Shown piece after piece: positions 21,719 to 33,958 of a stretch of 41,485 bases of DNA. Position numbers and translations under genes: made by a program. How positions within the stretch are numbered: the first letter of the stretch is position 1; every line of letters begins with the position of its first letter. Source of the stretch: a virus; the UHGV virus genome UHGV-0203597; one strand, 5' to 3'. The notes under the pieces are model-generated. The model was not told the DNA's origin. It ran no database searches and saw only the letters and a list, made by a program, of their open reading frames with translations.

Positions 21719-22057
21719 ATGGCTAAATCAGCAGCAGAGCGCAAAGCCGCTCAGAGAGCCAGACAAGCTGCATCTGGTGTGCGTAAGCTGGAAATTGTGC
21801 TTGATGCTCAGGAAATTGAAATGCTGGAGCGTAACTGTGCCACGCGTCGCCCCGGGCGTGCGCCTTACGAATTTGGTGAGTATATAGCGTTACTGATCCG
21901 CCAGGATGATGCACGCGTGCGCGGGCGTATAAAATCGATCAGCAGAAAACGTTGCGGTAAGTGCGGCGAGAGAGTTCCAGTTAATTCATGCCCGTGTAAT
22001 GGTGACTCGCAATGCTGGGTGACCAAAGGCTGGCATGAAACGAAATTAATAGTGTGA
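21719..22057 (+). CDS. Putative regulator with basic N-terminus and C-terminal Cys cluster (candidate late-gene regulator)
   Basis: 112 aa; CGKCGERVPVNSCPCNGDSQC; close upstream of the late operon; stop lies in GTGACATGTCAC. Confidence 0.4.
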   Translation: MAKSAAERKAAQRARQAASGVRKLEIVLDAQEIEMLERNCATRRPGRAPYEFGEYIALLIRQDDARVRGRIKSISRKRCGKCGERVPVNSCPCNGDSQCWVTKGWHETKLIV

Positions 22058-22065
22058 CATGTCAC
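22054..22065. repeat. 12-bp palindrome GTGACATGTCAC, copy 2 of 3
   Basis: Overlaps stop of 21719-22057 and the start region of the next ORF. Confidence 0.5.
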
Positions 22066-22074
22066 GAAGGTGTT

Positions 22075-22287
22075 ATGCCAAAAATACGCTACGACCTTGA
22101 AGATATGAGAGATAACTCAGCAAATTTTCCGAAAGAGGTTAAATTTCTCATGAATAAGTATGGTTGCGCCAGGAGGGATATAGTTATCGACAGTCAGCAC
22201 CCTTGCGGCGAGGATGTAATTTTCATTCGCGGTAAATGGGAATGGTATCTTGACGAGAGTTTTTACGATGAATTTGATGGACTTTGA
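22075..22287 (+). CDS. Hypothetical protein
   Basis: 70 aa from MPKIRYDL (alternative GTG 22054); GAAGGTG RBS. Confidence 0.35.
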   Translation: MPKIRYDLEDMRDNSANFPKEVKFLMNKYGCARRDIVIDSQHPCGEDVIFIRGKWEWYLDESFYDEFDGL

Positions 22288-22292
22288 ATACT

Positions 22293-22319
22293 GCCGCCAA
22301 CTATGGCGGCTTTATTTTG
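22293..22319 (+). terminator. Terminator preceding the terminase operon
   Basis: gccgcc-aactat-ggcggc followed by tttattttg. Confidence 0.6.
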
Positions 22320-22329
22320 CATGGTACTA

Positions 22330-22344
22330 TTACCACAACGGTAA
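22330..22344. promoter_or_regulatory. TTACC-N5-GGTAA operator-like palindrome upstream of terminase
   Basis: ttaccacaacggtaa 18 nt before terS ATG; second imperfect copy at 22348-22362. Confidence 0.45.
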
Positions 22345-22361
22345 CTATTACCACGGTGGTT

Positions 22362-22994
22362 ATGATGCCTGCTGAACCTAAAACCTATAAACGTAAATCA
22401 ACGCAATTTAAGCCACTAACAGCAATGCAGGAGGCTTATTGCCAGTCATACATCAAAACGCCTGAAAACCAGACTCAGGCAGCGATTAACGCAGGATTCT
22501 CCCCAAATACAGCGGCAGTTAAAGCAAGTGTCATGATGCGCGATGAACGCATTCAAAAACGGATTGCCGAGTTGATGGAGGAGCGCAACAAACGAATGCG
22601 CGTCAGTGCTGATTACGTTCTCATGCGCCTGGTGGAGATCGACCAGATGGACGTGCTGGATATACTGAACGATGACGGCGGGATGAAGCCGATCGCTGAA
22701 TGGCCGAAGGTCTGGCGTACCTCTCTCAGTGCTATGGATATCGCTACCATCAAGACAACCCAGGCTTCCCTGCAAAAAGAGAATGGCGAGGCGGATCTCT
22801 CTGTTGAGGATGTCGAGCATATCCTGAAGAAGGTGAAATGGCCTGACAAGGTGAAGAACCTTGAGCTGATTGGTAAGCATGTTGATGTCAACGCATTCAA
22901 AGAACGTCTGGATGTTAATGTGAATGTGACAATTGCTGATCGCATAGCAGCAGCCAGGAAGCGACTCAAAGAACGTCAGGATGGTAATCAGTGA
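22362..22994 (+). CDS. Terminase small subunit
   Basis: 210 aa from MMPAEP; position before large terminase with 4-nt overlap; N-terminal DNA-binding-like region. Confidence 0.6.
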   Translation: MMPAEPKTYKRKSTQFKPLTAMQEAYCQSYIKTPENQTQAAINAGFSPNTAAVKASVMMRDERIQKRIAELMEERNKRMRVSADYVLMRLVEIDQMDVLDILNDDGGMKPIAEWPKVWRTSLSAMDIATIKTTQASLQKENGEADLSVEDVEHILKKVKWPDKVKNLELIGKHVDVNAFKERLDVNVNVTIADRIAAARKRLKERQDGNQ

Positions 22995-24466
22995 CAGATA
23001 CAGCGTTATCTCCTGAAGAGCAGTTAATCGAGGATATTGCAGGGTTCACTCACGATCCGCTTGGCTATGCCCTCTATGCGTTCCCGTGGGGGGAAGATGG
23101 GACTGAACTGGCACATGCCACCGGTCCACGTCAGTGGCAGGCTGATGCGTTCCGAGAGATACGTGATCACCTGCAGAATCCAGAGACGCGCTATCAGCCG
23201 CTTATGCTGGCACGCGCTTCGGGTCACGGTATTGGTAAATCCGCATTCATCTCAATGCTGATCAACTGGGGCATGTCCACTTGCGAGGATTGTAAGGTTG
23301 TGGTGACCGCCAACACCGACAACCAGCTACGAACGAAGACCTGGCCGGAAATTATCAAGTGGTCGAACCTTGCTATCACGAAAGACTGGTTTACCTGTAC
23401 CGCTACCGCGATGTACAGCAATGATCCTGGACACGACAAGCGGTGGCGAGCTGACGCAATACCCTGGTCTGAGCACAACACTGAGGCATTCGCCGGACTA
23501 CACAACGAGCGCAAACGCATCATCGTGGTATTCGATGAAGCGTCGAACATTGCGGATCTGGTGTGGGAAGTTGCCGAGGGTGCGCTAACGGACGAAGACA
23601 CTGAGATTATCTGGGTGGCGTTCGGAAACCCGACGCGTAATACCGGACGTTTCCGCGAATGTTTCCGCAAATATAAACACCGCTGGAAAACTGCGCAGAT
23701 TGACAGCCGGACGGTGGAAGGCACCAACAAACAGCAGTTGCAGAAATGGGTTGATGACTACGGGGAAGACAGCGACTTCGTTAAAATCCGTGTGCGCGGC
23801 ATATTCCCGGATGCATCTGAATTGCAGTTTATCCCTACCGGACTTACTGACGAGGCAATGAAACGGGTGGTCACCGCTGCGCAGGTTGCACATGCTCCGG
23901 TGATAATCGGCGTTGACCCGGCATACTCAGGCGTTGATGACGCTGTGATATACCTGCGGCAGGGGCTGCACAGTAAGGTGCTGTGGACTGGCAACAAGAC
24001 CACTGACGATCTGATTATGGCGAAGCGTATCGCTGACTTTGAAGACCAGTACCAGGCTGACGCAGTGTTCATCGACTTCGGTTACGGAACTGGTCTGAAG
24101 TCAATCGGTGACGGCTGGGGTCGTACATGGCAACTTGTTCCGTTCGGTGGCGCGTCTACTGACCCGCAGATGCTCAACAAGCGTGGGGAGATGTTCAACT
24201 CATGTAAGACATGGCTGAGGCTGGGCGGCATGCTGGATGACCAGGAAACTGCAGACGACCTGTCGGCGGCAGAGTACAAAGTTCGAGTGGACGGTAAAAT
24301 CGTTATCGAACCGAAGGAAGATATCAAAGAGCGACTTGGGCGTTCGCCGGGTAAAGGCGATGCGCTGCTGCTGACGTTTGCTTTCCCGGTGTCGAAGCGC
24401 CTGCGACTTCCCTGGCAGCAGAACCAGCAAGGCAAGGCCATCACAGATTATGACCCGTATGCTTAA
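22991..24466 (+). CDS. Terminase large subunit
   Basis: 491 aa; Walker A-like ASGHGIGKS; nuclease-domain acidic motifs (VIIGVDPA, AVFIDFGYG). Confidence 0.85.
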   Translation: MTDTALSPEEQLIEDIAGFTHDPLGYALYAFPWGEDGTELAHATGPRQWQADAFREIRDHLQNPETRYQPLMLARASGHGIGKSAFISMLINWGMSTCEDCKVVVTANTDNQLRTKTWPEIIKWSNLAITKDWFTCTATAMYSNDPGHDKRWRADAIPWSEHNTEAFAGLHNERKRIIVVFDEASNIADLVWEVAEGALTDEDTEIIWVAFGNPTRNTGRFRECFRKYKHRWKTAQIDSRTVEGTNKQQLQKWVDDYGEDSDFVKIRVRGIFPDASELQFIPTGLTDEAMKRVVTAAQVAHAPVIIGVDPAYSGVDDAVIYLRQGLHSKVLWTGNKTTDDLIMAKRIADFEDQYQADAVFIDFGYGTGLKSIGDGWGRTWQLVPFGGASTDPQMLNKRGEMFNSCKTWLRLGGMLDDQETADDLSAAEYKVRVDGKIVIEPKEDIKERLGRSPGKGDALLLTFAFPVSKRLRLPWQQNQQGKAITDYDPYA

Positions 24467-24523
24467 TCCGCTGGTGGGGATAATGTCGTTGATATCCTCT
24501 GATGAGGATAAAACAAAGCCAGC

Positions 24524-24931
24524 TCATCGGCTGGCTGTTTGTGACATGTCACTGTGTTGTTGCTCGCTTAACTTCTGCTTCAGCAAGTAACCTTCAAGCA
24601 TCCAGATTTTGTTTACAGCATTCTGCCGGGCAATCTTCCGACCAATTTCTGCATCAAAATTTTCCGGACTTGCACAGGCACTCTCTCCGGTGACAGTGAA
24701 GCCATTCTTCAGCACCAGTACGCAGAAAGTGAGAAGGTGCAGAGCATCAGGGGTGGCTTCGACATAAGGCTCCGGATTATAAATAAGGTCATCTTCTTTA
24801 GCCTGGTGATCACCCTGCGCAGCAGTGAAAAAATGCTCACTGCAAATGAGGCCTTCAATTTTCTCAGGTGTTACACGCGGTGCCGTTTTGCCTTTCTCAA
24901 CGATTTCTTTTTCGATTTGCTGGTCGTTCAT
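24524..24931 (-). CDS. Hypothetical protein, antisense to the late operon, downstream of tRNA
   Basis: 135 aa; AAGGTGAG RBS; same strand as tRNA; family not recognised. Confidence 0.5.
   Translation of the reverse strand: MNDQQIEKEIVEKGKTAPRVTPEKIEGLICSEHFFTAAQGDHQAKEDDLIYNPEPYVEATPDALHLLTFCVLVLKNGFTVTGESACASPENFDAEIGRKIARQNAVNKIWMLEGYLLKQKLSEQQHSDMSQTASR
24541..24552. repeat. 12-bp palindrome GTGACATGTCAC, copy 3 of 3
   Basis: Inside the last codons of the minus-strand gene; adjacent to hairpin gccagc-tcatcg-gctggc. Confidence 0.5.
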
Positions 24932-24942
24932 AATCTCACCTT

Positions 24943-24966
24943 AAAAAAATGCCCGGCGAACCGGGC
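24943..24966 (-). terminator. Minus-strand terminator hairpin between tRNA and the 135-aa gene
   Basis: gcccgg-cgaa-ccgggc with T-tract on the minus strand, only about 12 nt upstream of the 135-aa gene ATG. Confidence 0.45.
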
Positions 24967-25052
24967 GAACTGGAAGCAATGAGTTATGCCTTCCGTGGCT
25001 GTACTGGTTTACAGCATGAAGTCATCGCAATGGCGTCCTGCTGTAAAAAGGG

Positions 25053-25095
25053 CGGTGATAGTCCTTCAAGGGAAACCATCACCGCCAAGCCCCTG
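25053..25095 (-). terminator. Long imperfect hairpin terminator directly 3' of the tRNA
   Basis: ggcggtgat...atcaccgcc stem followed on the minus strand by CTTTTT. Confidence 0.45.
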
Positions 25096-25129
25096 GAACT
25101 TCTGGCATCACGGTCCTTAGGCGTGATTC

Positions 25130-25206
25130 TGGCGTGGCATGCAGGATTCGAACCTGCGACCAACCGCTTAGAAGGCGGTTGCTCTGTCCAACTGAGCTAA
25201 TGCCAC
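25130..25206 (-). tRNA. tRNA-Arg (anticodon UCU), phage-encoded variant
   Basis: 77 nt GTGGCATTAGCTCAGTTGGACAGAGCAACCGCCTTCTAAGCGGTTGGTCGCAGGTTCGAATCCTGCATGCCACGCCA; full cloverleaf with 7-bp acceptor stem, GTTCGAATC T-loop, encoded CCA; D and T arms match recalled E. coli argU, acceptor and anticodon stems differ. Confidence 0.85.
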
Positions 25207-25528
25207 AACGCTGAGAGCACTTAGCCTGTTAAGGCGCCACACTTTGTCGCGGCTCCATAAATGCTCTCATCGTTGTACCCTCGTCTCTTCCGAGGCGTCA
25301 CACCGAATCGCCGGGATGGTGAATCCCCGTGCGCGGAATAAAACCGCTCGACTTGCACATTCCGGCTACCTGGTTCGTTTGCCCGAGCAAGGGAGGGTGC
25401 CCCTTAAACGTATCCAGACCGCTATCGGCGCATGTGCCATACGCCGTACTGCTCAAAATAAAAGCTCACTCCACCTGTTCAATTTAACGACAATCCAGTC
25501 AGGTTAGTAACCGGAATGAACTCTTTGG

Positions 25529-25543
25529 TTACCTGAAAGGTAA
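25529..25543. promoter_or_regulatory. TTACC-N5-GGTAA operator-like palindrome upstream of portal operon
   Basis: ttacctgaaaggtaa, identical to 4139-4153. Confidence 0.45.
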
Positions 25544-25633
25544 TAATTTGTGCGTTAAATGTCAACTATCTACGATAAATAAATCATATGTGGTTAAATT
25601 GGTAATAATTTAATTGCGTACGGAGTCATTGAT

Positions 25634-25840
25634 ATGTGCATGGGTAGCTCACCATCAGTGCCTGCAACACCAGAAGTTCAGGCAGCACCACAGGAGCAGG
25701 ATGCCGCCGTTGTTGATGCCCGCGACGAAGAAACACGTCGCCGTCGCGCTGCTGCTGGTCGTAGTTCTACGCTGCTTACCGGTTCTCAGGGCGACACATC
25801 AACCGCTAATACCAGCGGTAAAACGCTGCTTGGTCAGTAA
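25634..25840 (+). CDS. Small hypothetical protein upstream of portal
   Basis: 68 aa; GGAG RBS; the initiation context ggagtcattga is repeated before the portal ATG. Confidence 0.35.
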   Translation: MCMGSSPSVPATPEVQAAPQEQDAAVVDARDEETRRRRAAAGRSSTLLTGSQGDTSTANTSGKTLLGQ

Positions 25841-25854
25841 CCGGAGTCATTGAA

Positions 25855-27534
25855 ATGGCGGAAACAACTAAAGAGCGATTGAACAAACAGTTCGCACAAC
25901 TTGAAAGCGAGCGTCAGTCGTTCGAGCCGCACTGGCGCGAGTTGAGTGATTACATCAACCCGCGTGGTTCCCGCTTTCTGACTTCTGAGGCCAACCGTAA
26001 CGATCGGCGCAATACACGCATTATTGATTCGACCGGGACTATGGCGGCGCGCACTCTCGCCAGCGGCATGATGTCAGGCATCACAAGCCCCGCGCGTCCG
26101 TGGTTTCGCCTGGCTACGCCAGATCCTGAAATGATGGATTATGGCCCTGTTAAGTTGTGGCTTGAGGCGGTGCAGAACCGCATGAACGATATGTTCAATA
26201 AGTCGAATCTCTATCAGTCTCTGCCGCAGTTATACGGAAGCCTCGGCACATACAGCACTGGTGCAATGGCAGTGCTGGAGGATGACGAGGACATCATTCG
26301 CACAATGCCATTCCCGATAGGCAGTTACTACCTGGCTAACTCACCTCGTGGCAGTGTGGACACCTGTTTTCGCAAGTTCTCTATGACTGTTCGTCAGCTT
26401 GTTCAGGAGTTCGGGCTAAATAACGTCAGCGAATCCGTAAAAAGCATGTGGGAAAGCGGCACCTACGAGAAGTGGATTGAAGTGATGCATTCGGTTTACC
26501 CGAACATTGACCGCGATACATCGAAGCTGGATAGCAAGAACAAGCCATTCAAATCGGTTTATTACGAGGTTGGTGGCGATAACGACAAGTTGTTGCGTGA
26601 GTCCGGATTCGATGAGTTTCCAATTATGGCTCCGCGCTGGGAAGTTAACGGCGAAGATGTTTATGGATCATCATGCCCGGGTATGCTGGCGCTTGGACCT
26701 GTTAAGGCATTGCAGCTTCTCCAGAAGCGCAAGTCGCAGTTGATTGATAAAGCCACCAATCCGCCGATGGTTGCTCCGACTTCCCTCAAGAATCAGCGTG
26801 CCTCCCTTCTTCCTGGCGACATCACGTATATCGATCAGATTACTGGTCAGGATGGTTTCAGGCCTGCTTATCTGGTTAACCCCAGTACAGCAGATTTGGT
26901 GGCAGACATTCAGGACACCCGTCAAATCATTAACAGCGCCTACTTTGTCGATCTGTTCATGATGTTGCAGAACATCAATACCCGCTCGATGCCTGTTGAA
27001 GCGGTGATCGAAATGAAAGAAGAAAAACTTCTGATGTTGGGGCCGGTTCTGGAGCGTCTGAACGACGAATGTCTTAATCCTCTCATTGACCGCGCTTTCT
27101 CGATGATGGTGCGTAAAAACATGCTGCCGCCACCGCCTGACGCGATGGAAGGCATGCCCCTGAAGGTCGAATACATTTCCGTCATGGCTCAGGCGCAGAA
27201 GTCTATCGGCCTGTCCAGTCTGGCGTCCACGGTTAACTTCATTGGTCAACTTGCGCAAGCGAAACCAGAAGCTCTCGACAAACTCAATGTTGATCAGGCG
27301 ATCGATGCATTCGCTGATATGTCCGGAGTGTCTCCAACCGTCATTGTTCCGCAGGAACAGGTTGAGCAGGCTCGCCAGCAACGGGCACAGCAGCAACAGC
27401 AGCAACAAATGATGGCGATGGGAATGGCGGCGGCACAGGGCGCCAAGACGCTAAGCGAAGCTAAAACTTCGGATCCGAGTGTTTTGTCAGCTATGGCGAA
27501 TGCAGTTAGTGGTCAGGGTGGGCAATCACAATGA
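25855..27534 (+). CDS. Portal protein
   Basis: 559 aa; position after terminase and before scaffold/capsid; acidic Q-rich C-terminus. Confidence 0.7.
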   Translation: MAETTKERLNKQFAQLESERQSFEPHWRELSDYINPRGSRFLTSEANRNDRRNTRIIDSTGTMAARTLASGMMSGITSPARPWFRLATPDPEMMDYGPVKLWLEAVQNRMNDMFNKSNLYQSLPQLYGSLGTYSTGAMAVLEDDEDIIRTMPFPIGSYYLANSPRGSVDTCFRKFSMTVRQLVQEFGLNNVSESVKSMWESGTYEKWIEVMHSVYPNIDRDTSKLDSKNKPFKSVYYEVGGDNDKLLRESGFDEFPIMAPRWEVNGEDVYGSSCPGMLALGPVKALQLLQKRKSQLIDKATNPPMVAPTSLKNQRASLLPGDITYIDQITGQDGFRPAYLVNPSTADLVADIQDTRQIINSAYFVDLFMMLQNINTRSMPVEAVIEMKEEKLLMLGPVLERLNDECLNPLIDRAFSMMVRKNMLPPPPDAMEGMPLKVEYISVMAQAQKSIGLSSLASTVNFIGQLAQAKPEALDKLNVDQAIDAFADMSGVSPTVIVPQEQVEQARQQRAQQQQQQQMMAMGMAAAQGAKTLSEAKTSDPSVLSAMANAVSGQGGQSQ

Positions 27535-27827
27535 CAGATTACGAAGACGATCAACTGAAAGAAGAAAACGCCCGTAAGCAACGTGACATGGCGCAGCGTG
27601 AAATTGATGACATTCGCTTTGTCATGAGCAGTGAACAAGGGCGTCGCGTTGTCTGGTCGGTGCTGGAGAAAGGCCGTGTGTTTTCCGCTATCTCACCGAT
27701 GGACGCTATGGCAATGGCATTTAATGAGGGGCAACGCAATCTGGCGCTGGAACTGTTTCAGCGCGTTATGGCGCATTGCCCTGAACAGTATTTGAAGATG
27801 GCCAAAGAGGCCAGTGAACAGGAGTGA
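27531..27827 (+). CDS. Hypothetical head-assembly protein
   Basis: 98 aa; coupled between portal and scaffold. Confidence 0.4.
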   Translation: MTDYEDDQLKEENARKQRDMAQREIDDIRFVMSSEQGRRVVWSVLEKGRVFSAISPMDAMAMAFNEGQRNLALELFQRVMAHCPEQYLKMAKEASEQE

Positions 27828-28525
27828 TCATGAATTTATTTGAGCGTTTGCTGTATAGCCGTCTTTGCAATGAGCAACCAGTCGATGGTGGAGCAGCTCC
27901 GGCTGCGTCAGAACCGTCAGCTCCTGCAGGTGATAACCCTGCTCCAGTTGGTGATCCATCACAACAGGAAGGTGATAAGCCACAACCTGTTGCTGATGGC
28001 GATAAACCTGCTGATGACAAAAAGCCTGAAAACGATAAGCAGGATGAAAAAAAGGACGGCGATAAACCAGAGGGTGCGCCTGAGAAGTACGAGTTTCAGG
28101 CTGCCGAAGGCGTAGAGCTGGATACAGAAGCGTTGAAGGAATTCGAGCCGGTGGCGCGAGAACTAAACCTGACCAACGAGCAAGCGCAAAAGCTGGTTGA
28201 TGCTTATCCGAAGATTCTGGCAGGTGTTCAGCAGCGCCAGGCAGAAGCCTGGCAGAAAACAACCGAGCAGTGGGCTGCGGATGTAAAAGCCGACAAAGAA
28301 ATCGGTGGCGACAAGTTGATTTCTAACCTTAGCGCCGCACAGCGTGCGCTTGACCAGTTCGGGACACCTGAACTCAAAGAATATCTGAACACCTCCGGGC
28401 TGGGTAATCACCCTGATCTGGTCAAAACGTTCGTGAAAATCGGAAAGGCGATGTCTGAAGATGGCATGGTCACCGGTGGTAATGAAGGCCAGCGTAGTGC
28501 GGCCGAAGTGCTCTATGGCAAATAA
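27824..28525 (+). CDS. Scaffolding protein
   Basis: 233 aa; acidic, Pro/Ala/Lys-rich low-complexity N-terminus then helical C-terminus; directly upstream of capsid. Confidence 0.5.
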   Translation: MIMNLFERLLYSRLCNEQPVDGGAAPAASEPSAPAGDNPAPVGDPSQQEGDKPQPVADGDKPADDKKPENDKQDEKKDGDKPEGAPEKYEFQAAEGVELDTEALKEFEPVARELNLTNEQAQKLVDAYPKILAGVQQRQAEAWQKTTEQWAADVKADKEIGGDKLISNLSAAQRALDQFGTPELKEYLNTSGLGNHPDLVKTFVKIGKAMSEDGMVTGGNEGQRSAAEVLYGK

Positions 28526-28539
28526 GAGAGGAAATGACA

Positions 28540-29526
28540 ATGGCTGTTAAAGGCTTAACTGCGCTAACGCTGGCTGACTGGGGTAAGCGCGTCGATCCAA
28601 ACGGGAAAGTCGATAAGATTATCGAGCTTCTCGGTCAAACTAACCCGATCCTTCAGGATATGCCTTTTGTCGAAGGGAACCTTCCTACCGGACACCGAAC
28701 CACCATTCGTTCTGGTTTACCTTCAGCTACCTGGCGTTTGCTGAACTATGGCGTACAGCCAAGCAAATCAACCACAGTGCAGGTAACCGATTCCGTTGGC
28801 ATGCTGGAAACCTATGCTGAAGTCGATAAGTCACTGGCTGATCTGAACGGTAATACTGCCGAATTCCGCCTGTCTGAAGACCGCGCATTTATTGAAGCGA
28901 TGAATCAGCAGATGGCGCAGACACTGTTTTATGGTGATTCCAGCGTTAACCCTCAGCAGTTTATGGGACTGTCCTCCCGCTATTCCAGCCTGTCTGCGGG
29001 TAATGCTCAGAACATCATTGATGCTGGTGGCACGGGTACAGATAACACCTCAATCTGGTTAGTGGTGTGGGGCGAAAACACCGTGCATGGCATCTTCCCG
29101 AAAGGGCAGAAGGCTGGCATCCAGATGGAAGATAAAGGCCAGGTGACACTGGAAGATGCTAATGGCGGCAAGTACGAAGGCTACCGTACCCATTACAAAT
29201 GGGACAACGGACTTGCTCTGCGTGACTGGCGTTATGTTGTTCGCATTGCAAACATCGATGTCAGCAATCTTTCAGAACCATCCTCTGCCGCAAATATTGC
29301 GAAGTTGATGGTTAAAGCACTACATCGCATTCCAAACCGTGGCATGGGCCGCCCGGTGTTCTACATGAACCGCACTGTAGGCCAGGCTCTTGATCTGCAG
29401 TCTCTGGAGAAAACATCTCTGGCTATCAGCGTAAAAGAGACAGAAGGCGAGTGGTGGACTTCATTCCGTGGTGTACCAATCCGTGAAACTGATGCGCTTC
29501 TGGAAACAGAAGCCCGCGTGGTGTAA
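28540..29526 (+). CDS. Major capsid protein
   Basis: About 329 aa (ATG 28540 with AGAGAGG at 8 nt; alternative 28534); position and size typical of HK97-fold coat proteins. Confidence 0.7.
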   Translation: MAVKGLTALTLADWGKRVDPNGKVDKIIELLGQTNPILQDMPFVEGNLPTGHRTTIRSGLPSATWRLLNYGVQPSKSTTVQVTDSVGMLETYAEVDKSLADLNGNTAEFRLSEDRAFIEAMNQQMAQTLFYGDSSVNPQQFMGLSSRYSSLSAGNAQNIIDAGGTGTDNTSIWLVVWGENTVHGIFPKGQKAGIQMEDKGQVTLEDANGGKYEGYRTHYKWDNGLALRDWRYVVRIANIDVSNLSEPSSAANIAKLMVKALHRIPNRGMGRPVFYMNRTVGQALDLQSLEKTSLAISVKETEGEWWTSFRGVPIRETDALLETEARVV

Positions 29527-29577
29527 CGCCTGTTATTAACCTGTGGGTCGTAACAGACCCACTAATGGAGAAAGAAG

Positions 29578-30015
29578 ATGATCACCGACAAACTGTTGAT
29601 GTTCTCCGAAGCTCAGGCGGTTACGAATACCGCGGCTTCTACTGACGTAATCGATCTCGGTCCAATTGACGGAAAACGTCGTGATATCGGCGTGGGTTAC
29701 CCGCTTGAGTTTTGGGCGCTGGTTAACGCAGCCGCCGCGGCAAGCGGTGATGCAACTGTAAACATCCAGTTGCAGACGAGTGAGAATAACAGCTCATGGA
29801 CCACTATTTATGATAGTGGCGCACTGGCAAAGACCGCCCTGACAGCAGGTAAACGAGTTGTTTCTGCAAAGGTGCCTGCCGGTGTTCAGCGATATCTGCG
29901 TGTTAACTACTCCGTCGCAACTGGCCCACTAACGGCTGGCAAATTCACTGCGGGTATCAGTCTGGATGTTGATGCCAATACGCCGTACCCGATCCGCTCA
30001 AAAGTAACTGGTTAA
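29578..30015 (+). CDS. Hypothetical structural protein (possible capsid decoration)
   Basis: 145 aa; Ala/Thr-rich; immediately after capsid. Confidence 0.4.
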   Translation: MITDKLLMFSEAQAVTNTAASTDVIDLGPIDGKRRDIGVGYPLEFWALVNAAAAASGDATVNIQLQTSENNSSWTTIYDSGALAKTALTAGKRVVSAKVPAGVQRYLRVNYSVATGPLTAGKFTAGISLDVDANTPYPIRSKVTG

Positions 30016-30025
30016 GGTGATATCG

Positions 30026-30361
30026 ATGTCAGGTGAGAAACCAAGATACCGCGTTCTGCGCCTCTCTCATATCCATAACACTCTGTGGCCGGAGGGGGCA
30101 GAAATCGAATACGAAGGTGAGCCTGGTAGCGCACTGGAACCTGTTAACGATGCAGCCAGACAGGCAAAAGCAAAAGTTGCAGGAAAGGTGTCAATGGCAG
30201 CAACCAGCACCAAAATCATCAACGATGTGTCAGATGATGGTGAACTGGATAAGCTCCGTGAAGAGTACGAATTGCTCTTTAACGAGAAGCCACACCATAA
30301 CGCCAAAGCCGAAACGCTACGCGAGAAGATCGCAGATAAGCGTAAAGAACTGGGCGTGTAA
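30026..30361 (+). CDS. Hypothetical protein
   Basis: 111 aa from ATG 30026 (alternative GTG 30017). Confidence 0.4.
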   Translation: MSGEKPRYRVLRLSHIHNTLWPEGAEIEYEGEPGSALEPVNDAARQAKAKVAGKVSMAATSTKIINDVSDDGELDKLREEYELLFNEKPHHNAKAETLREKIADKRKELGV

Positions 30362-30417
30362 GCCTCGCGAATCAGACAAGGGGCTTCGGCCCCTTTATTG
30401 CAGGAGTATAGAAACTT

Positions 30418-31023
30418 ATGGCCTCTGTAGTAGAGATCTGCAATCGTGCGCTGTCCAATATTGGCAACAGCCGCAGCATTAACAGCCTGACGGAAGCCAG
30501 CAAGGAAGCGGGGGAATGTTCGCTGCACTTTGAGGCCTGCCGTGATGCTGTGCTTTCTGATTTTGACTGGAACTTTGCTACCAAACGCGTGGCGCTTGCA
30601 GATACGAGCAATCCACCGCCTGACTGGGAATATGCGTACCAGTACCCGTCAGATTGTCTGCGCATTACTGAAATTATGCTTCCTGGTGTACGCAATCCAA
30701 CAGCAGCAATGCGCGTTCAGTACGAAGTTGGTGCAGACACCAACGGAACAGGAAAATTGATCTACACAGACCAGCCGCAGGCATGGCTCAAGTATGTCTC
30801 TCGCGTTTCAGATGTAAACATGTTTGATGCCATTTTTATGGAGGCGCTGGCCTGGCGTCTTGCGGCAGCCATTAACATGGCGCTGACTGGGAATGCGGAT
30901 CTCGGTACATTTGCTCTCAATATGTACAATCGCGTGATTCTTAGTGCTGGCTCGCATAGCCAGAATGAATCACAGGAACCACAGCCACCGGTTGACGAGT
31001 TTACCATTGCGAGGTTGTCCTGA
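30418..31023 (+). CDS. Tail tubular protein A / adaptor-like (T7 gp11 position)
   Basis: 201 aa; N-terminal pattern VVEICNRALSNIG resembles adaptor/gp11-like starts; gene order. Confidence 0.45.
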   Translation: MASVVEICNRALSNIGNSRSINSLTEASKEAGECSLHFEACRDAVLSDFDWNFATKRVALADTSNPPPDWEYAYQYPSDCLRITEIMLPGVRNPTAAMRVQYEVGADTNGTGKLIYTDQPQAWLKYVSRVSDVNMFDAIFMEALAWRLAAAINMALTGNADLGTFALNMYNRVILSAGSHSQNESQEPQPPVDEFTIARLS

Positions 31024-33494
31024 TGGCTATCAGTTGGATCCAGCCCAGCTTTGCCGGTGGTGAGATTGGACCGTCGTTGTACGGGCGTATTGACATGGCG
31101 AAGTACCAGGTGGCATTGCGCAAGTGCGATAACTTTATCGTGCGGCAGTATGGCGGCGTTGAGAATCGACCAGGTACGCGTTTTGTCGGTGCCGCCAAAT
31201 ACCCAAATCGGAAATGCCGCCTGATCCCGTTCCAGTTCTCGACGGTTCAGACCTATGCTCTGGAGTTCGGACACCAGTACATGCGCGTTATCAAAGATGG
31301 TGCGTTGGTGCTGAACAGCAGCAATGTTATTTATGAAATTGCCACGCCATATACTGAAGCCGATCTGTTCCGAATTAAATTCACGCAAAGCGCCGACGTG
31401 CTTACGCTTGTTCATCCGGCATACCCGCCGAAAGAGTTGCGTCGCTATGCGCATGACAACTGGCAACTGGTTGATGTGGTAACGAAGAACGGACCATTTG
31501 AAGATATCAATATTGACGAGTCAGTGACGGTTTATGCCAGCGCCAGCACCGGGACAATTACGTTAACGGCAAGCGCCTCTATTTTTGGCGCGGAGCAGGT
31601 AGGCAAATTGTTCTATCTGGAACAGCCTGCAGTGGATTCTGTGCCGGTATGGGAAACCAGTAAGAGTACGTCAATTGGCGATATTCGCCGTGCAGACAGT
31701 AACTACTATCGCGCCGTTACAGTAGGCAAAACAGGCACTTTGCGCCCTTCGCATACAGAAGGCACATCATGGGATGGCTGGGGCGGATCCGGTGATGATG
31801 ATACCGGCATTGAGTGGGAGTATCTGCACAGTGGTTTTGGCATTGCCCGTATCTCTGCTGCAAATGGAACTACTGCAACTGCCGAGGTGATTTCCTATAT
31901 CCCTTCGCAGGTAGTTGGCGAGGATAATGCCAGCTATAAATGGGCTAAATATGCCTGGAACAGTGTTAATGGTTATCCTGGCACTGTTGTTTATTATCAA
32001 CAACGTCTTTACTTCGCCGCATCGACTGCGTTTCCTCAGACTATCTGGGCCAGCCGTACCGGGGATTATAAGGATTTTGGCAAAAGCAATCCTACGCAGG
32101 ATGACGACAGAATTATCTACACCTATGCCGGGCGTCAGGTTAATGAGATCCGCCACCTGATTGATGTTGGTTCGCTGGTGGCGCTGACTTCCGGAGGTGA
32201 GTACGTCATCACTGGCGACCAGAACAAAGTGCTTACCCCATCATCATTTGCATTCAGCTCTCAGGGATCAAATGGCTCGAGCAATGTCCCACCAATTGCC
32301 GTGGCGAATATTGCTCTGTTCGTCCAAGAGAAAGGCAGTGTTGTCCGTGATCTGGCCTACTCATTCGATGTTGACGGCTATCAGGGGAACGACCTGACCA
32401 TCCTTGCCAATCATCTTTTTCAGAAGCACAGCATTGTTGACTGGTGCTTCTCGATAGTCCCTTACTCCAGCGCCTTCTGCATTCGTGATGACGGTAAATT
32501 ACTGGTGATGACCTATTTGCGTGATCAGCAGGTTTTTGCATGGGCACCACAATCCAGTACCGGAAAATATGAAAGCACATGCAGTATCAGCGAAGGAAAT
32601 GAAGATGCGGTGTATTTCGTCGTTAACCGAACCGTTAACGGGCAAACAGTGAGATACATCGAGCGACTGTCCAGCCGTTTATTTACCAGCGATGAAGATG
32701 CTTTCTTTGTTGATTCTGGCCTTAGCTATGATGGAAGAAATACGTCTGACAGAACGATGATCATCACTGGTGGTTCTGGCGAATGGGATTACCGCGAGGA
32801 ATATACAATCAGTGTTTCTGGTGGTGCGTACTTCACCAGTAGTGATATCGGTGCCCAACTACAGTTCCCTTATACCGGAACTGATCCTGATACTGGCGAT
32901 GAAGTGTCAAAAGAATTACGTTGCGACATTATTTCTGTAACCAGCAATACCGCTGTAGTGGTTCGTGCTAACAGGAACGTCCCGCCATCCCTCAGGAATG
33001 TGGCCACCACGAACTGGCAGATGGCGCGCCGGACATTTGGAGGCCTGTCTCATCTTGAAGGCCAGACCGTAAACATTCTCTCTGATGCGAACGTGGAACC
33101 ACAGAAAGTGGTTTCCGGAGGTGCCGTCACGCTGGAATCTCCGGGGGCTGTAGTGCACATCGGCCTGCCAATAACTGCTGAATTCGAAACACTGGATATC
33201 AACATTAACGGACAGGAAACGCTGCTGGACAAAAAACAGGTGATCCCCTCCGTTACTCTGGTTGTGAATGCCAGTCGCGGCATCTGGGCGACTACGCCCG
33301 GCGGTAAATGGTACGAATATCCACAGCGTGAATTCGAGTTCTACGATGATCCTGTTGATGATGCTACCGGAAAAGTAGAAGTGAAACTGGACAGTAACTG
33401 GGGCAAAAACGGACGTGTAAAAATCCGTCAGCTTGATCCGTTGCCGCTGTCTGTTCTTGCCGTTATTCCTCGCCTTACTGTTGGGGGATTCTGA
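31023..33494 (+). CDS. Tail tubular protein B / nozzle-like (T7 gp12 position)
   Basis: 823 aa; N-terminal pattern and gene order; overlapping start/stop with neighbours. Confidence 0.5.
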   Translation: MAISWIQPSFAGGEIGPSLYGRIDMAKYQVALRKCDNFIVRQYGGVENRPGTRFVGAAKYPNRKCRLIPFQFSTVQTYALEFGHQYMRVIKDGALVLNSSNVIYEIATPYTEADLFRIKFTQSADVLTLVHPAYPPKELRRYAHDNWQLVDVVTKNGPFEDINIDESVTVYASASTGTITLTASASIFGAEQVGKLFYLEQPAVDSVPVWETSKSTSIGDIRRADSNYYRAVTVGKTGTLRPSHTEGTSWDGWGGSGDDDTGIEWEYLHSGFGIARISAANGTTATAEVISYIPSQVVGEDNASYKWAKYAWNSVNGYPGTVVYYQQRLYFAASTAFPQTIWASRTGDYKDFGKSNPTQDDDRIIYTYAGRQVNEIRHLIDVGSLVALTSGGEYVITGDQNKVLTPSSFAFSSQGSNGSSNVPPIAVANIALFVQEKGSVVRDLAYSFDVDGYQGNDLTILANHLFQKHSIVDWCFSIVPYSSAFCIRDDGKLLVMTYLRDQQVFAWAPQSSTGKYESTCSISEGNEDAVYFVVNRTVNGQTVRYIERLSSRLFTSDEDAFFVDSGLSYDGRNTSDRTMIITGGSGEWDYREEYTISVSGGAYFTSSDIGAQLQFPYTGTDPDTGDEVSKELRCDIISVTSNTAVVVRANRNVPPSLRNVATTNWQMARRTFGGLSHLEGQTVNILSDANVEPQKVVSGGAVTLESPGAVVHIGLPITAEFETLDININGQETLLDKKQVIPSVTLVVNASRGIWATTPGGKWYEYPQREFEFYDDPVDDATGKVEVKLDSNWGKNGRVKIRQLDPLPLSVLAVIPRLTVGGF

Positions 33495-33958
33495 TGATCG
33501 ATGTTCAAATTATTCCCGCAACCGAAGAGCATCTTCAGATGATTTTGCCGGATGTTCGTCAGGCTGATATTGACGAACTGTATGCGGTATCACTGATGAC
33601 TACCGAAGATGCGCTGCGTGTTGGTCTGCGTACTGCGACTATGGCCTGGTCAGGATTTGCGAACGGAGAACTGGTAACCATGTTTGGCGTATCTCCGGCG
33701 TCAATGATCGGTGGCAATGGTACGCCATGGCTGGTAGGAACCAGCCGTATTGAAAAATATCAGAAGACATTTCTTCGCCACTGCCGCCCTGTATTGCAGC
33801 AGATGCTGGCAGTTTATCCGCGTCTGGAAAACTACGTCGACGAGCGAAACCATGTTGCCAAAGCATGGCTCCACTGGCTTGGATTCAGGCTTGAAGAAGC
33901 CGCGCCTTATGGTGCTCTTGGTCTTAATTTCCACAGATTTCACATGGAGAGAAAATAA
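33494..33958 (+). CDS. Internal virion protein (T7 gp13 position)
   Basis: 154 aa; TGATG coupling. Confidence 0.4.
   Translation: MIDVQIIPATEEHLQMILPDVRQADIDELYAVSLMTTEDALRVGLRTATMAWSGFANGELVTMFGVSPASMIGGNGTPWLVGTSRIEKYQKTFLRHCRPVLQQMLAVYPRLENYVDERNHVAKAWLHWLGFRLEEAAPYGALGLNFHRFHMERK

Follow-up and report, generated by a model that had tools for sequence, protein, structure and literature searches.

The 41,485-nucleotide (nt) virus genome UHGV-0203597, analysed over its full length and hereafter called the window, carries between its large terminase gene (terL) and the small gp3 gene ahead of the portal gene a stretch of DNA that a preliminary description, made from the letters alone, had presented as an antisense insert holding a tRNA-Arg(UCU), two terminators and a gene of 135 amino acids (aa). 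On its identity and architecture we consider this stretch, with a probability of about 0.7, to be a leftward accessory cassette, a unit of its own, in the genome of a temperate podovirus similar to phiV10 and epsilon15 (Uetakevirus), where it stands between terminase and head genes. Read along the minus strand, the cassette would start with a sigma-70-like promoter having a consensus -35 hexamer and a -10 hexamer within an operator motif, continue with a ~245-nt pseudoknotted leader RNA and a phage-type tRNA-Arg(UCU) joined to the 3' end of the leader, pass through two intrinsic terminators into a cargo slot, filled here by a putative sponge gene of the Acb4 family, and end at a bidirectional terminator shared with terL. 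The leader appears to be a member of a widespread, undescribed RNA family heading repressor-controlled early transcription units. As first framed, the finding was an ordinary one, a known phage tRNA beside a known sponge-family member; its value lies in a defined slot with predicted counter-defence sponge genes (at least two variants) behind a fixed regulatory module, and in a widespread structured RNA under strong constraint.

The region matched phiV10, the O157 typing phages 9 and 10, TL-2011b and other Uetakeviruses at 96–97% identity, with epsilon15, SPN1S and Klebsiella relatives as more distant matches. The tRNA, the two terminators and the small gene were all present on the minus strand between terminase and portal, and the gene was recovered as an open reading frame (ORF) of 135 aa, in agreement with the preliminary description. 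The term antisense insert holds in so far as the cassette is read from the minus strand, but it falls short of the arrangement found, because the minus strand probably carries a promoter dedicated to the cassette, with an operator motif across it, which makes the cassette a separate transcription unit rather than merely antisense. That first reading was therefore right in part and incomplete: the Acb4-family identity of the gene, the cassette's own promoter, the structured RNA and the existing annotations of the tRNA in related records had been overlooked.

The gap of 427 bp between the tRNA and gp3 holds the structured RNA, the promoter-like site and the operator motif. This stretch was 75–82% conserved in phages of Klebsiella and Salmonella, lambdoid phages of E. 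coli and even phages of Stenotrophomonas; a search with a core pattern returned at least 120 viral contigs, and the block of conservation spanned ~25203–25450 across 105 distinct sequences. Folded as the minus strand, the leader opens with a 9-bp 5' hairpin and a long-range helix enclosing a variable arm. In the middle stands a helix with the loop CACC, which forms a pseudoknot by pairing with GGUG further downstream. A hairpin capped by a GAAGAGA loop comes next, and a long 3' helix, hypervariable at its tip, is the last element; its base uses the first three nucleotides of the tRNA. Cutting by RNase P at the 5' end of the tRNA would part the two RNAs. RNAalifold gave 45 pairs, 16 of them with compensatory changes. 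Covariation was then tested on a MAFFT alignment of 21 diverse family members, using 500 shuffles and slid-partner controls. Including the pseudoknot brought the structure to 49 pairs, of which 17 had changed on both sides, and 98.2% of cells were paired; none of the 500 shuffles was as high on any measure, and slid-partner pairing reached 31–45%. The pseudoknot showed a compensatory change of its own, from C-G to A-U in three sequences. The many conserved G-U pairs show which strand is the RNA: read from the plus strand they would become A-C mismatches, so that the RNA lies on the minus strand, that of the tRNA.

The same block could in principle encode a small protein on the plus strand (ORF 25244..25507, 87 aa) or act as a DNA-level site, and hypothetical coding sequences (CDSs) are indeed annotated over it in several GenBank records, with an open frame running across the element in 11 of the 21 family members. 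However, substitutions showed no 3-nt periodicity (26, 21 and 19 variable columns by phase), the indels of the leader were not multiples of three, and the orientation of the element tracked the direction of transcription in all three contexts in which it occurs. Together with the 17 compensated pairs and the strand preference of the G-U pairs, these results make this alternative extremely improbable, and the coding reading was rejected for want of codon periodicity. Thus the leader is a structured non-coding RNA, with compensatory pairs beyond those of the controls, strand-specific G-U pairs and no coding signal.

Two stretches of 11 nt were invariant in the leader, UAUGGCACAUG at the top of the 5' hairpin and GAAUGUGCAAG at a junction (~25354–25364 and 25429–25439, minus strand). 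They contain the complementary hexamers GCACAU and AUGUGC, which may form an alternative or tertiary pairing; neither stretch varies, so that the pairing gives no covariation signal. In some family members (L023, L024 and L055) the long 3' helix was replaced by an unrelated conserved domain of ~110 nt containing GCUUAGCGGGACUGGAAGAGUUACCACUUGGAGACGGUCC. Comparison with Rfam 15, for the window at gathering thresholds and for 24400–25900 at E ≤ 10, found only the tRNA in the leader–tRNA–ORF stretch, and eight related loci gave no match for the leader or the alternative 3' domain. Full-text literature searches for the core sequences of the leader returned nothing relevant, and the literature on the phiV10/epsilon15 tRNA, the P1 ban operon and lambdoid leader RNAs held no description of the leader RNA. 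The prophage Pas small RNAs were unrelated.

The tRNA had been described as a complete cloverleaf with encoded CCA that differs from the host-type argU in its acceptor and anticodon stems, and both points were borne out. ARAGORN detected a single tRNA in the whole window, a tRNA-Arg (anticodon tct), and the Rfam tRNA model RF00005 scored it at 73.3 bits against a gathering score of 29. Aligned with K-12 argU, it was identical at 64 of 77 positions. The acceptor-stem differences were three compensatory pair swaps (2:71, 4:69 and 6:67), and the others were two anticodon-stem base pairs, also swapped, one D-loop base and two variable-loop bases, leaving the anticodon loop CUUCUAA, A20, the T arm and the encoded 3' CCA the same as in argU. 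A20 and C35 are identity elements for arginyl-tRNA synthetase, and the alignment placed both in the phage tRNA together with the host-like anticodon loop and the 3' CCA.

The tRNA is thus no copy of argU, the host gene with which it was compared, as recombination debris would be. It occurs within the genomes of the free phages phiV10, O157 typing phages 9 and 10, SPN9TCW and SPC32H; copies of at least 95% identity were found in only 505 E. coli records, and in all other records the best match was the core argU, at 85.9%. Over 31 leader-linked loci it was near-invariant, with at most eight and usually no more than five differences, most of them in the D loop or creating acceptor-stem G-U pairs, while the flanks and the neighbouring leader in the same loci fell to similarity ratios of ~0.5–0.7. 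The tRNA is therefore under purifying selection. An origin as an attachment-site remnant or recombination debris was rejected on its occurrence in free phages, its near-invariance and its restricted distribution, and the view of a phage-specific tRNA stands. The tRNA itself is not new, because the records of O157 typing phages 9 and 10, phiv142-3, SPN9TCW and SPC32H already annotate a tRNA-Arg(UCU); those of phiV10, TL-2011b, ZX5 and PAS61 do not. In the phiV10 record (DQ126339) a hypothetical CDS, PhiV10p04, stands opposite the tRNA strand (2152–2403 and 2333–2409 for the CDS and the unannotated tRNA) and is probably spurious.

The ORFs of the window used AGA at 7.4 and AGG at 4.9 per 1000 codons. 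E. coli uses AGA roughly 2 and AGG 1–2 times per 1000 codons in standard codon tables, so that the frequencies in the window are several-fold above the E. coli averages. The early region was rich in AGA codons, as were the last three large late genes, with 4–10 in each. Since AGA usage is elevated and concentrated in early and distal late genes, codon supplementation is a plausible role, in which the tRNA would support AGA decoding in precisely these AGA-rich genes. The preliminary description had also proposed replacement of a host tRNA targeted by an anticodon nuclease; in this reading the tRNA would exist mainly to stand in for a destroyed host tRNA-Arg(UCU), with its altered stems conferring resistance. 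Phage tRNAs that rescue cleavage by PARIS or retron effectors are a documented principle and give this idea a precedent; the stems do differ from argU by compensatory swaps with the identity-relevant A20 and the anticodon kept, and the tRNA is located in a slot with counter-defence genes. However, the idea is weakened because the 7-nt anticodon loop, the usual determinant for such nucleases, is the same as that of the host, and no defence nuclease specific for tRNA-Arg(UCU) was identified in this analysis. Moreover, raised AGA usage is a simpler reason for the tRNA, and many cassette variants are wholly without one. We thus regard replacement of a cleaved host tRNA as distinctly improbable.

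The two hairpin terminators reported to follow the tRNA on the same strand were both found by a scan and folded as predicted. T1 (hairpin 25086..25051, minus strand) has 14 bp followed by U5, and T2 (24966..24951, minus strand) has 6 bp, all G-C, followed by U7. The U-tract of T2 runs directly into AAGGUGAGAUU-AUG of the 135-aa ORF, with the Shine-Dalgarno sequence AAGGUGAG between U-tract and ATG; the ATG, placed about 12 nt past the second terminator by the preliminary description, was measured at 11 nt after the U-tract. This junction, the T2 hairpin, U7, AAGGTGAGATT and ATG, is kept ahead of different cargo genes, and a compensatory variant of the T2 stem, GCCCACTTCGGTGGGC, was also found. 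A third hairpin (24536..24517) is bidirectional and ends both the cassette and terL; the phiV10 record annotates it as a rho-independent terminator. The upper part of T1, GGUUUCCCUUGAAGGAC, is similar to the variable leader arm of other family members, GGGUUCCCUUGAUGCUAC (L029 and L001). Phages of the epsilon15 type look like the product of a deletion between T1-like and arm-like stretches that removed most of the leader and the tRNA.

The 135-aa protein matched PF13876 (Phage_gp49_66) with E = 3.2e-34 and 117.7 bits against a cut-off of 27, over profile positions 1–82 of 82, and the best 120 of 8000 database relatives all carried PF13876. With phmmer it matched PDB entry 9e4w (Acb4) at E = 0.004. 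An AlphaFold2 model of the protein had a mean predicted local-distance difference test score (pLDDT) of 87.4, and the first 13 PDB matches returned by Foldseek were all 9e4w chains, with probability 1.0 and target-normalised template-modelling (TM) scores of 0.57–0.71. Acb4 of Bacillus phage SPO1, with which the family was founded, is a tetrameric sponge for 3'3'-cyclic GMP–AMP (cGAMP) (PDB 9E4W; Chang et al., 2024, PMC11722364). All eight Acb4 homologues tested in that study bound cGAMP, those of Gram-negative phages also bound cyclic di-AMP (c-di-AMP), and the homologues differed in specificity; its Table S3, a list of 1,331 homologues, includes proteins of phiV10, epsilon15 and Sf6 (PMC11722364), and the phiV10 and epsilon15 orthologues listed there come from the same locus as the window gene.

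From the profile match and the modelled fold we assign the 135-aa ORF to the PF13876/Acb4 family, the family of sponges for cyclic dinucleotides that counter CBASS, the antiphage signalling system based on cyclic oligonucleotides, with its ligand preference uncertain. The protein would then sequester CBASS cyclic dinucleotides. Compared with SPO1 Acb4, the full-length Pfam match and the matching fold go with an identity of only 22–26%, and the window protein is longer by ~55 aa at the N terminus and by 12 aa at the C terminus. Three SPO1 pocket residues, F48, F62 and I66, are kept in the window protein as F78, F92 and I96. Family members have ~123–124 aa, and the window copy is 12 aa longer because the usual stop codon TAA is CAA in the window; at 24557–24562 the plus strand reads GTTGTT where phiV10 has GTTATT, the TAA stop being present in both phiV10 and epsilon15. 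The new stop codon of the extended gene lies in the loop of the bidirectional terminator.

The cargo position was surveyed by tblastn and ORF analysis of Uetakevirus-like loci with the same portal/terL frame. The occupants of the slot, which runs from the leader, with or without the tRNA, to terL, varied among Acb4-like, Tad2-like, phrog_4846 and phrog_4780 proteins, and the slot was sometimes almost empty. At locus L064 the place of the Acb4-like gene is taken by a Tad2-like protein (PF11195, E = 4e-26), preceded by the same leader, tRNA and T2 junction, and relatives at L090/L007 and L017/L084 likewise have occupants other than the Acb4-like gene. The slot is exchangeable, because different cargo genes stand there behind the conserved T2/Shine-Dalgarno junction, and, as judged from gene content, it is a cargo slot carrying predicted counter-defence sponge genes in at least two variants. 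phrog_4846 (a family of 140 aa) and phrog_4780 (a family of 200–300 aa with membrane and coiled-coil segments) are candidates for counter-defence or exclusion functions, and the slot thus offers a practical handle for finding new anti-defence genes of this kind.

Upstream of the leader, the minus strand has a perfect TTGACA (25565–25560) followed, after 17 nt, by TACCTT (25542..25537), an arrangement conserved in most of 12 diverse Uetakevirus-like loci aligned. This leftward promoter was recognised only through the comparative alignment; a sigma-70 scan of 24300–25900 returned no site of at least 9/12. Likewise, no promoter-like site of at least 9/12 was found in the interval from T1 to the ATG. 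The proposed -10 overlaps a palindrome, TTACC-N5-GGTAA, that occurs at ten sites in the window (1560, 2606, 4139, 14609, 14671, 15383, 17708, 17770, 22330 and 25529) and equals the site annotated 'repressor, lysogeny' in epsilon15; it is presumably a repressor operator. The cassette probably has its own repressor-controlled predicted promoter, and with such an arrangement it would be silent in a lysogen and be switched on early upon infection or induction. A second motif, (C)TATGTGGTT, was observed 30–45 nt downstream of the palindrome on the plus strand at 2606, 4139, 17708 and 25529, which suggests that it marks a common class of rightward promoters, one of them upstream of gp3 and the portal gene.

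Several observations count against the cassette as proposed. The -10 matches the consensus at only three of six positions, which is why the scan missed the promoter, and the operator at 25529 may belong to the putative rightward gp3/portal promoter, either as well or instead. Both epsilon15 and the L125-type phages keep T2 and cargo and have lost the tRNA and all but the first ~50 nt of the leader, so that the leader is not indispensable for cargo retention. From terS and terL through the next six ORFs (22284–30015) the annotated genes have no AGA and at most one AGG each; since AGA is almost absent from terL to 30015, the tRNA is not needed for the most highly expressed proteins. In the sponge protein, the guanine-specific pocket residues K36 and E49 of SPO1 Acb4 are replaced by D62 and T79, and the phosphate contacts Y57 and T70 by A87 and I100, with further pocket changes at V56 (to C) and N63 (to D) in the alignment. 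The coordinates of all parts are collected in Table 1.

Table 1. Parts of the proposed leftward cassette and its flanking genes in the window
Feature	Position	Strand	Basis or remark
terL (large terminase)	22991..24466	+	homology to phiV10 p02 (PhiV10p02)
Bidirectional terminator hairpin common to cassette and terL	24517..24536	both	ORF stop codon in loop
Acb4-family (PF13876) gene, 135 aa	24524..24931	-	Pfam, fold; Shine-Dalgarno AAGGTGAG at 24942..24935
T2 intrinsic terminator	24943..24966	-	6 G-C pairs, U7; abuts Shine-Dalgarno sequence
T1 intrinsic terminator	25045..25086	-	14-bp stem, 8-nt loop, U5
tRNA-Arg(UCU), phage type, CCA encoded	25130..25206	-	ARAGORN, Rfam
Structured pseudoknotted leader RNA, ~245 nt	25207..25448	-	conservation, covariation
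Operator-like palindrome TTACC-N5-GGTAA	25529..25543	both	overlaps proposed -10
-35 hexamer TTGACA, proposed leftward promoter	25560..25565	-	conserved in most of 12 aligned loci
gp3 gene (small)	25634..25840	+	flank
Portal gene	25855..27534	+	PF12236

The leader was detected by nhmmer in 152 loci and by blastn in 1840 of 5426 complete E. coli genomes, and its core 18-mer occurred in 27 species genomes, mostly Enterobacteriaceae, plus Azonexus. Three contexts were distinguished, in all of which the leader is oriented with the transcription of its neighbours. The first is that of the Uetakeviruses, in which the tRNA-Arg begins at exactly the same leader junction (31 of the 152 loci). The second is that of lambdoid prophages, including mEp460, cdtI, PhiR63_1, Stx2a/2c phages and an O26 prophage. 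In 83 of the 152 loci the leader is closely preceded, on its own strand, by an S24 (cI/LexA-like) repressor gene, and in annotated lambdoid examples the order is repressor, terminator and operators, leader, and then yfdP, yfdQ and the remaining early-left genes. In mEp460, two TTGC-N7-GCAA operators lie 60–100 nt upstream of the leader and match one in the cI–cro intergenic region, and no N gene is annotated at its usual place in the three annotated examples mEp460, cdtI and Stx2a_1447. The third context is that of P1/P7, where the 5' two-thirds of the leader stand 15 nt after a tRNA-Ile (tRNA(CAU)) and before ban; in the P7 record this is inside the ban operon annotated as controlled by the C1 operator Op(ban). 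Thus the lambdoid and P1/P7 leaders, and probably that of the window too, are located in repressor-controlled units and should therefore fire early after infection or induction. The window also carries, at 2384–2569 on the minus strand, an Rfam C4 antisense RNA (77.7 bits) adjoining isrK (72.3 bits), the immI antisense module of the P1/P7 type, and the same pair was seen in mEp460 (L128, 706–894), so that P1/P7, mEp460-like phages and the Uetakevirus all carry c4-type RNAs besides the leader.

As to what the leader does, we favour only tentatively an action in cis, by which it would promote read-through of T1 and T2, and of the early-left terminators in lambdoid phages, so that the cargo is expressed. 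The leader would let RNA polymerase, or the transcript, past the two terminators in a manner functionally like that of the put RNA of phage HK022, without homology to it. The basis for this reading is the lack of a promoter-like site (at least 9/12) between T1 and the ATG, the conservation of T2 against the Shine-Dalgarno sequence of interchangeable cargo, and the position of the lambdoid leader in the place of N/nutL or of HK022 putL. Like put, the lambdoid leader lies shortly downstream of the post-repressor operators at the start of early-left transcription, where no N gene is annotated, and in the window the terminators follow the leader before the first gene. In contrast, HK022 put has ~70 nt in two stem-loops and is present in two copies, downstream of PL and PR, whereas the leader has ~245 nt with at least six helices and a pseudoknot and is present once per phage.

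These differences count against the cis reading, as does the deletion of most of the leader in epsilon15-type phages that keep the cargo; three further results concern the same reading. An nhmmer search at maximum sensitivity of HK022 bases 22000–33500, which contain putL and putR, gave a 16-nt best match at E = 0.17, and with no sequence similarity to HK022 and a different architecture the leader was rejected as a put homologue. A single leader match was found in 146 of the 152 loci, the other six being double. Finally, terminator-like sites were no commoner downstream of the leader (43/97) than upstream of it (58/97) or on the opposite strand (57/97), counts that in themselves are neither support for nor evidence against antitermination.

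In a different reading the leader acts in trans: RNase P would release it at the tRNA junction as a stable RNA, which would be a decoy or sponge for a host factor or a defence system and would belong, with the sponge proteins, to one early counter-defence programme. The fold is discrete and ornate, with the pseudoknot and the two invariant 11-nt stretches; the leader adjoins tRNAs in two independent ways that would give it defined ends, with the tRNA-Arg on its 3' side in 31 loci and tRNA(CAU) 15 nt on its 5' side in P1/P7-like loci; it lies beside counter-defence cargo; its function is evidently independent of the downstream gene, be it ban, yfdP or acb4; and the tip of its last helix is hypervariable. 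However, a trans-acting leader has no known target, and 116 of the 152 copies are without an adjacent tRNA to set their ends. Against the rest of the window, the longest complementarity of the variable tip was 11 nt, within the range of 8–13 nt for shuffled sequences, and an antisense target for the tip within the window was therefore rejected as a chance-level match. We rate a trans-acting RNA little below the cis reading and, like it, well short of even.

The leader could also be a passive 5' element that leaves RNA polymerase unmodified, either protecting the transcript from decay that depends on its 5' end or shielding a long untranslated early leader from Rho. The lambdoid copies are consistent with this, as the conserved element opens with the strong 9-bp hairpin, starts 60–100 nt downstream of the operators and is followed by long untranslated stretches, for example ~320 nt before yfdP in mEp460. 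However, a stabilising hairpin would need much less constraint than is seen in the invariant single-stranded segments, in the covariation-supported pseudoknot and in a conservation that reaches from phages of E. coli to those of Stenotrophomonas and to an Azonexus genome; a passive role is unlikely.

The leader might represent a previously unrecognised class of phage regulatory RNA, of which it would be the first member, either a large, non-homologous analogue of put that reprogrammes RNA polymerase to read through terminators and replaces N in lambdoid phages lacking it, or an early counter-defence RNA, a proposal whose chances we place well short of even. Besides enterobacterial temperate phages (lambdoid prophages, P1/P7 and Uetakeviruses), the proposed class would take in phages of Stenotrophomonas and an Azonexus genome. 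Although P1 and P7, both classical phages, and roughly one in three complete E. coli genomes carry the leader, Rfam has no family for it. Control of early transcription by the leader, if real, would explain early-left expression in a large group of lambdoid phages that have no N at the usual place.

Other parts of the cassette also have counterparts in known systems. With regard to Tad2 (Thoeris anti-defence 2) and the 'moron' hotspots, the same slot holds a Tad2-like gene at L064; the window itself is without a Tad2 gene, and the likeness shows usage of the slot rather than the action of this copy. Among phage tRNA genes, tRNA1–3 in the ban operon of P1 are embedded in a phage operon in the same way, and the tRNA of the window is in addition fused to a structured RNA that is not a tRNA. 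The tRNA cluster of phage T4 includes the co-transcribed stable RNAs C and D, and is alike in that the end of the structured RNA would be set by tRNA processing. Unlike the tRNA sets of P1 and T4, however, the window has a single tRNA, tied to a specific leader family and to a slot for predicted counter-defence cargo.

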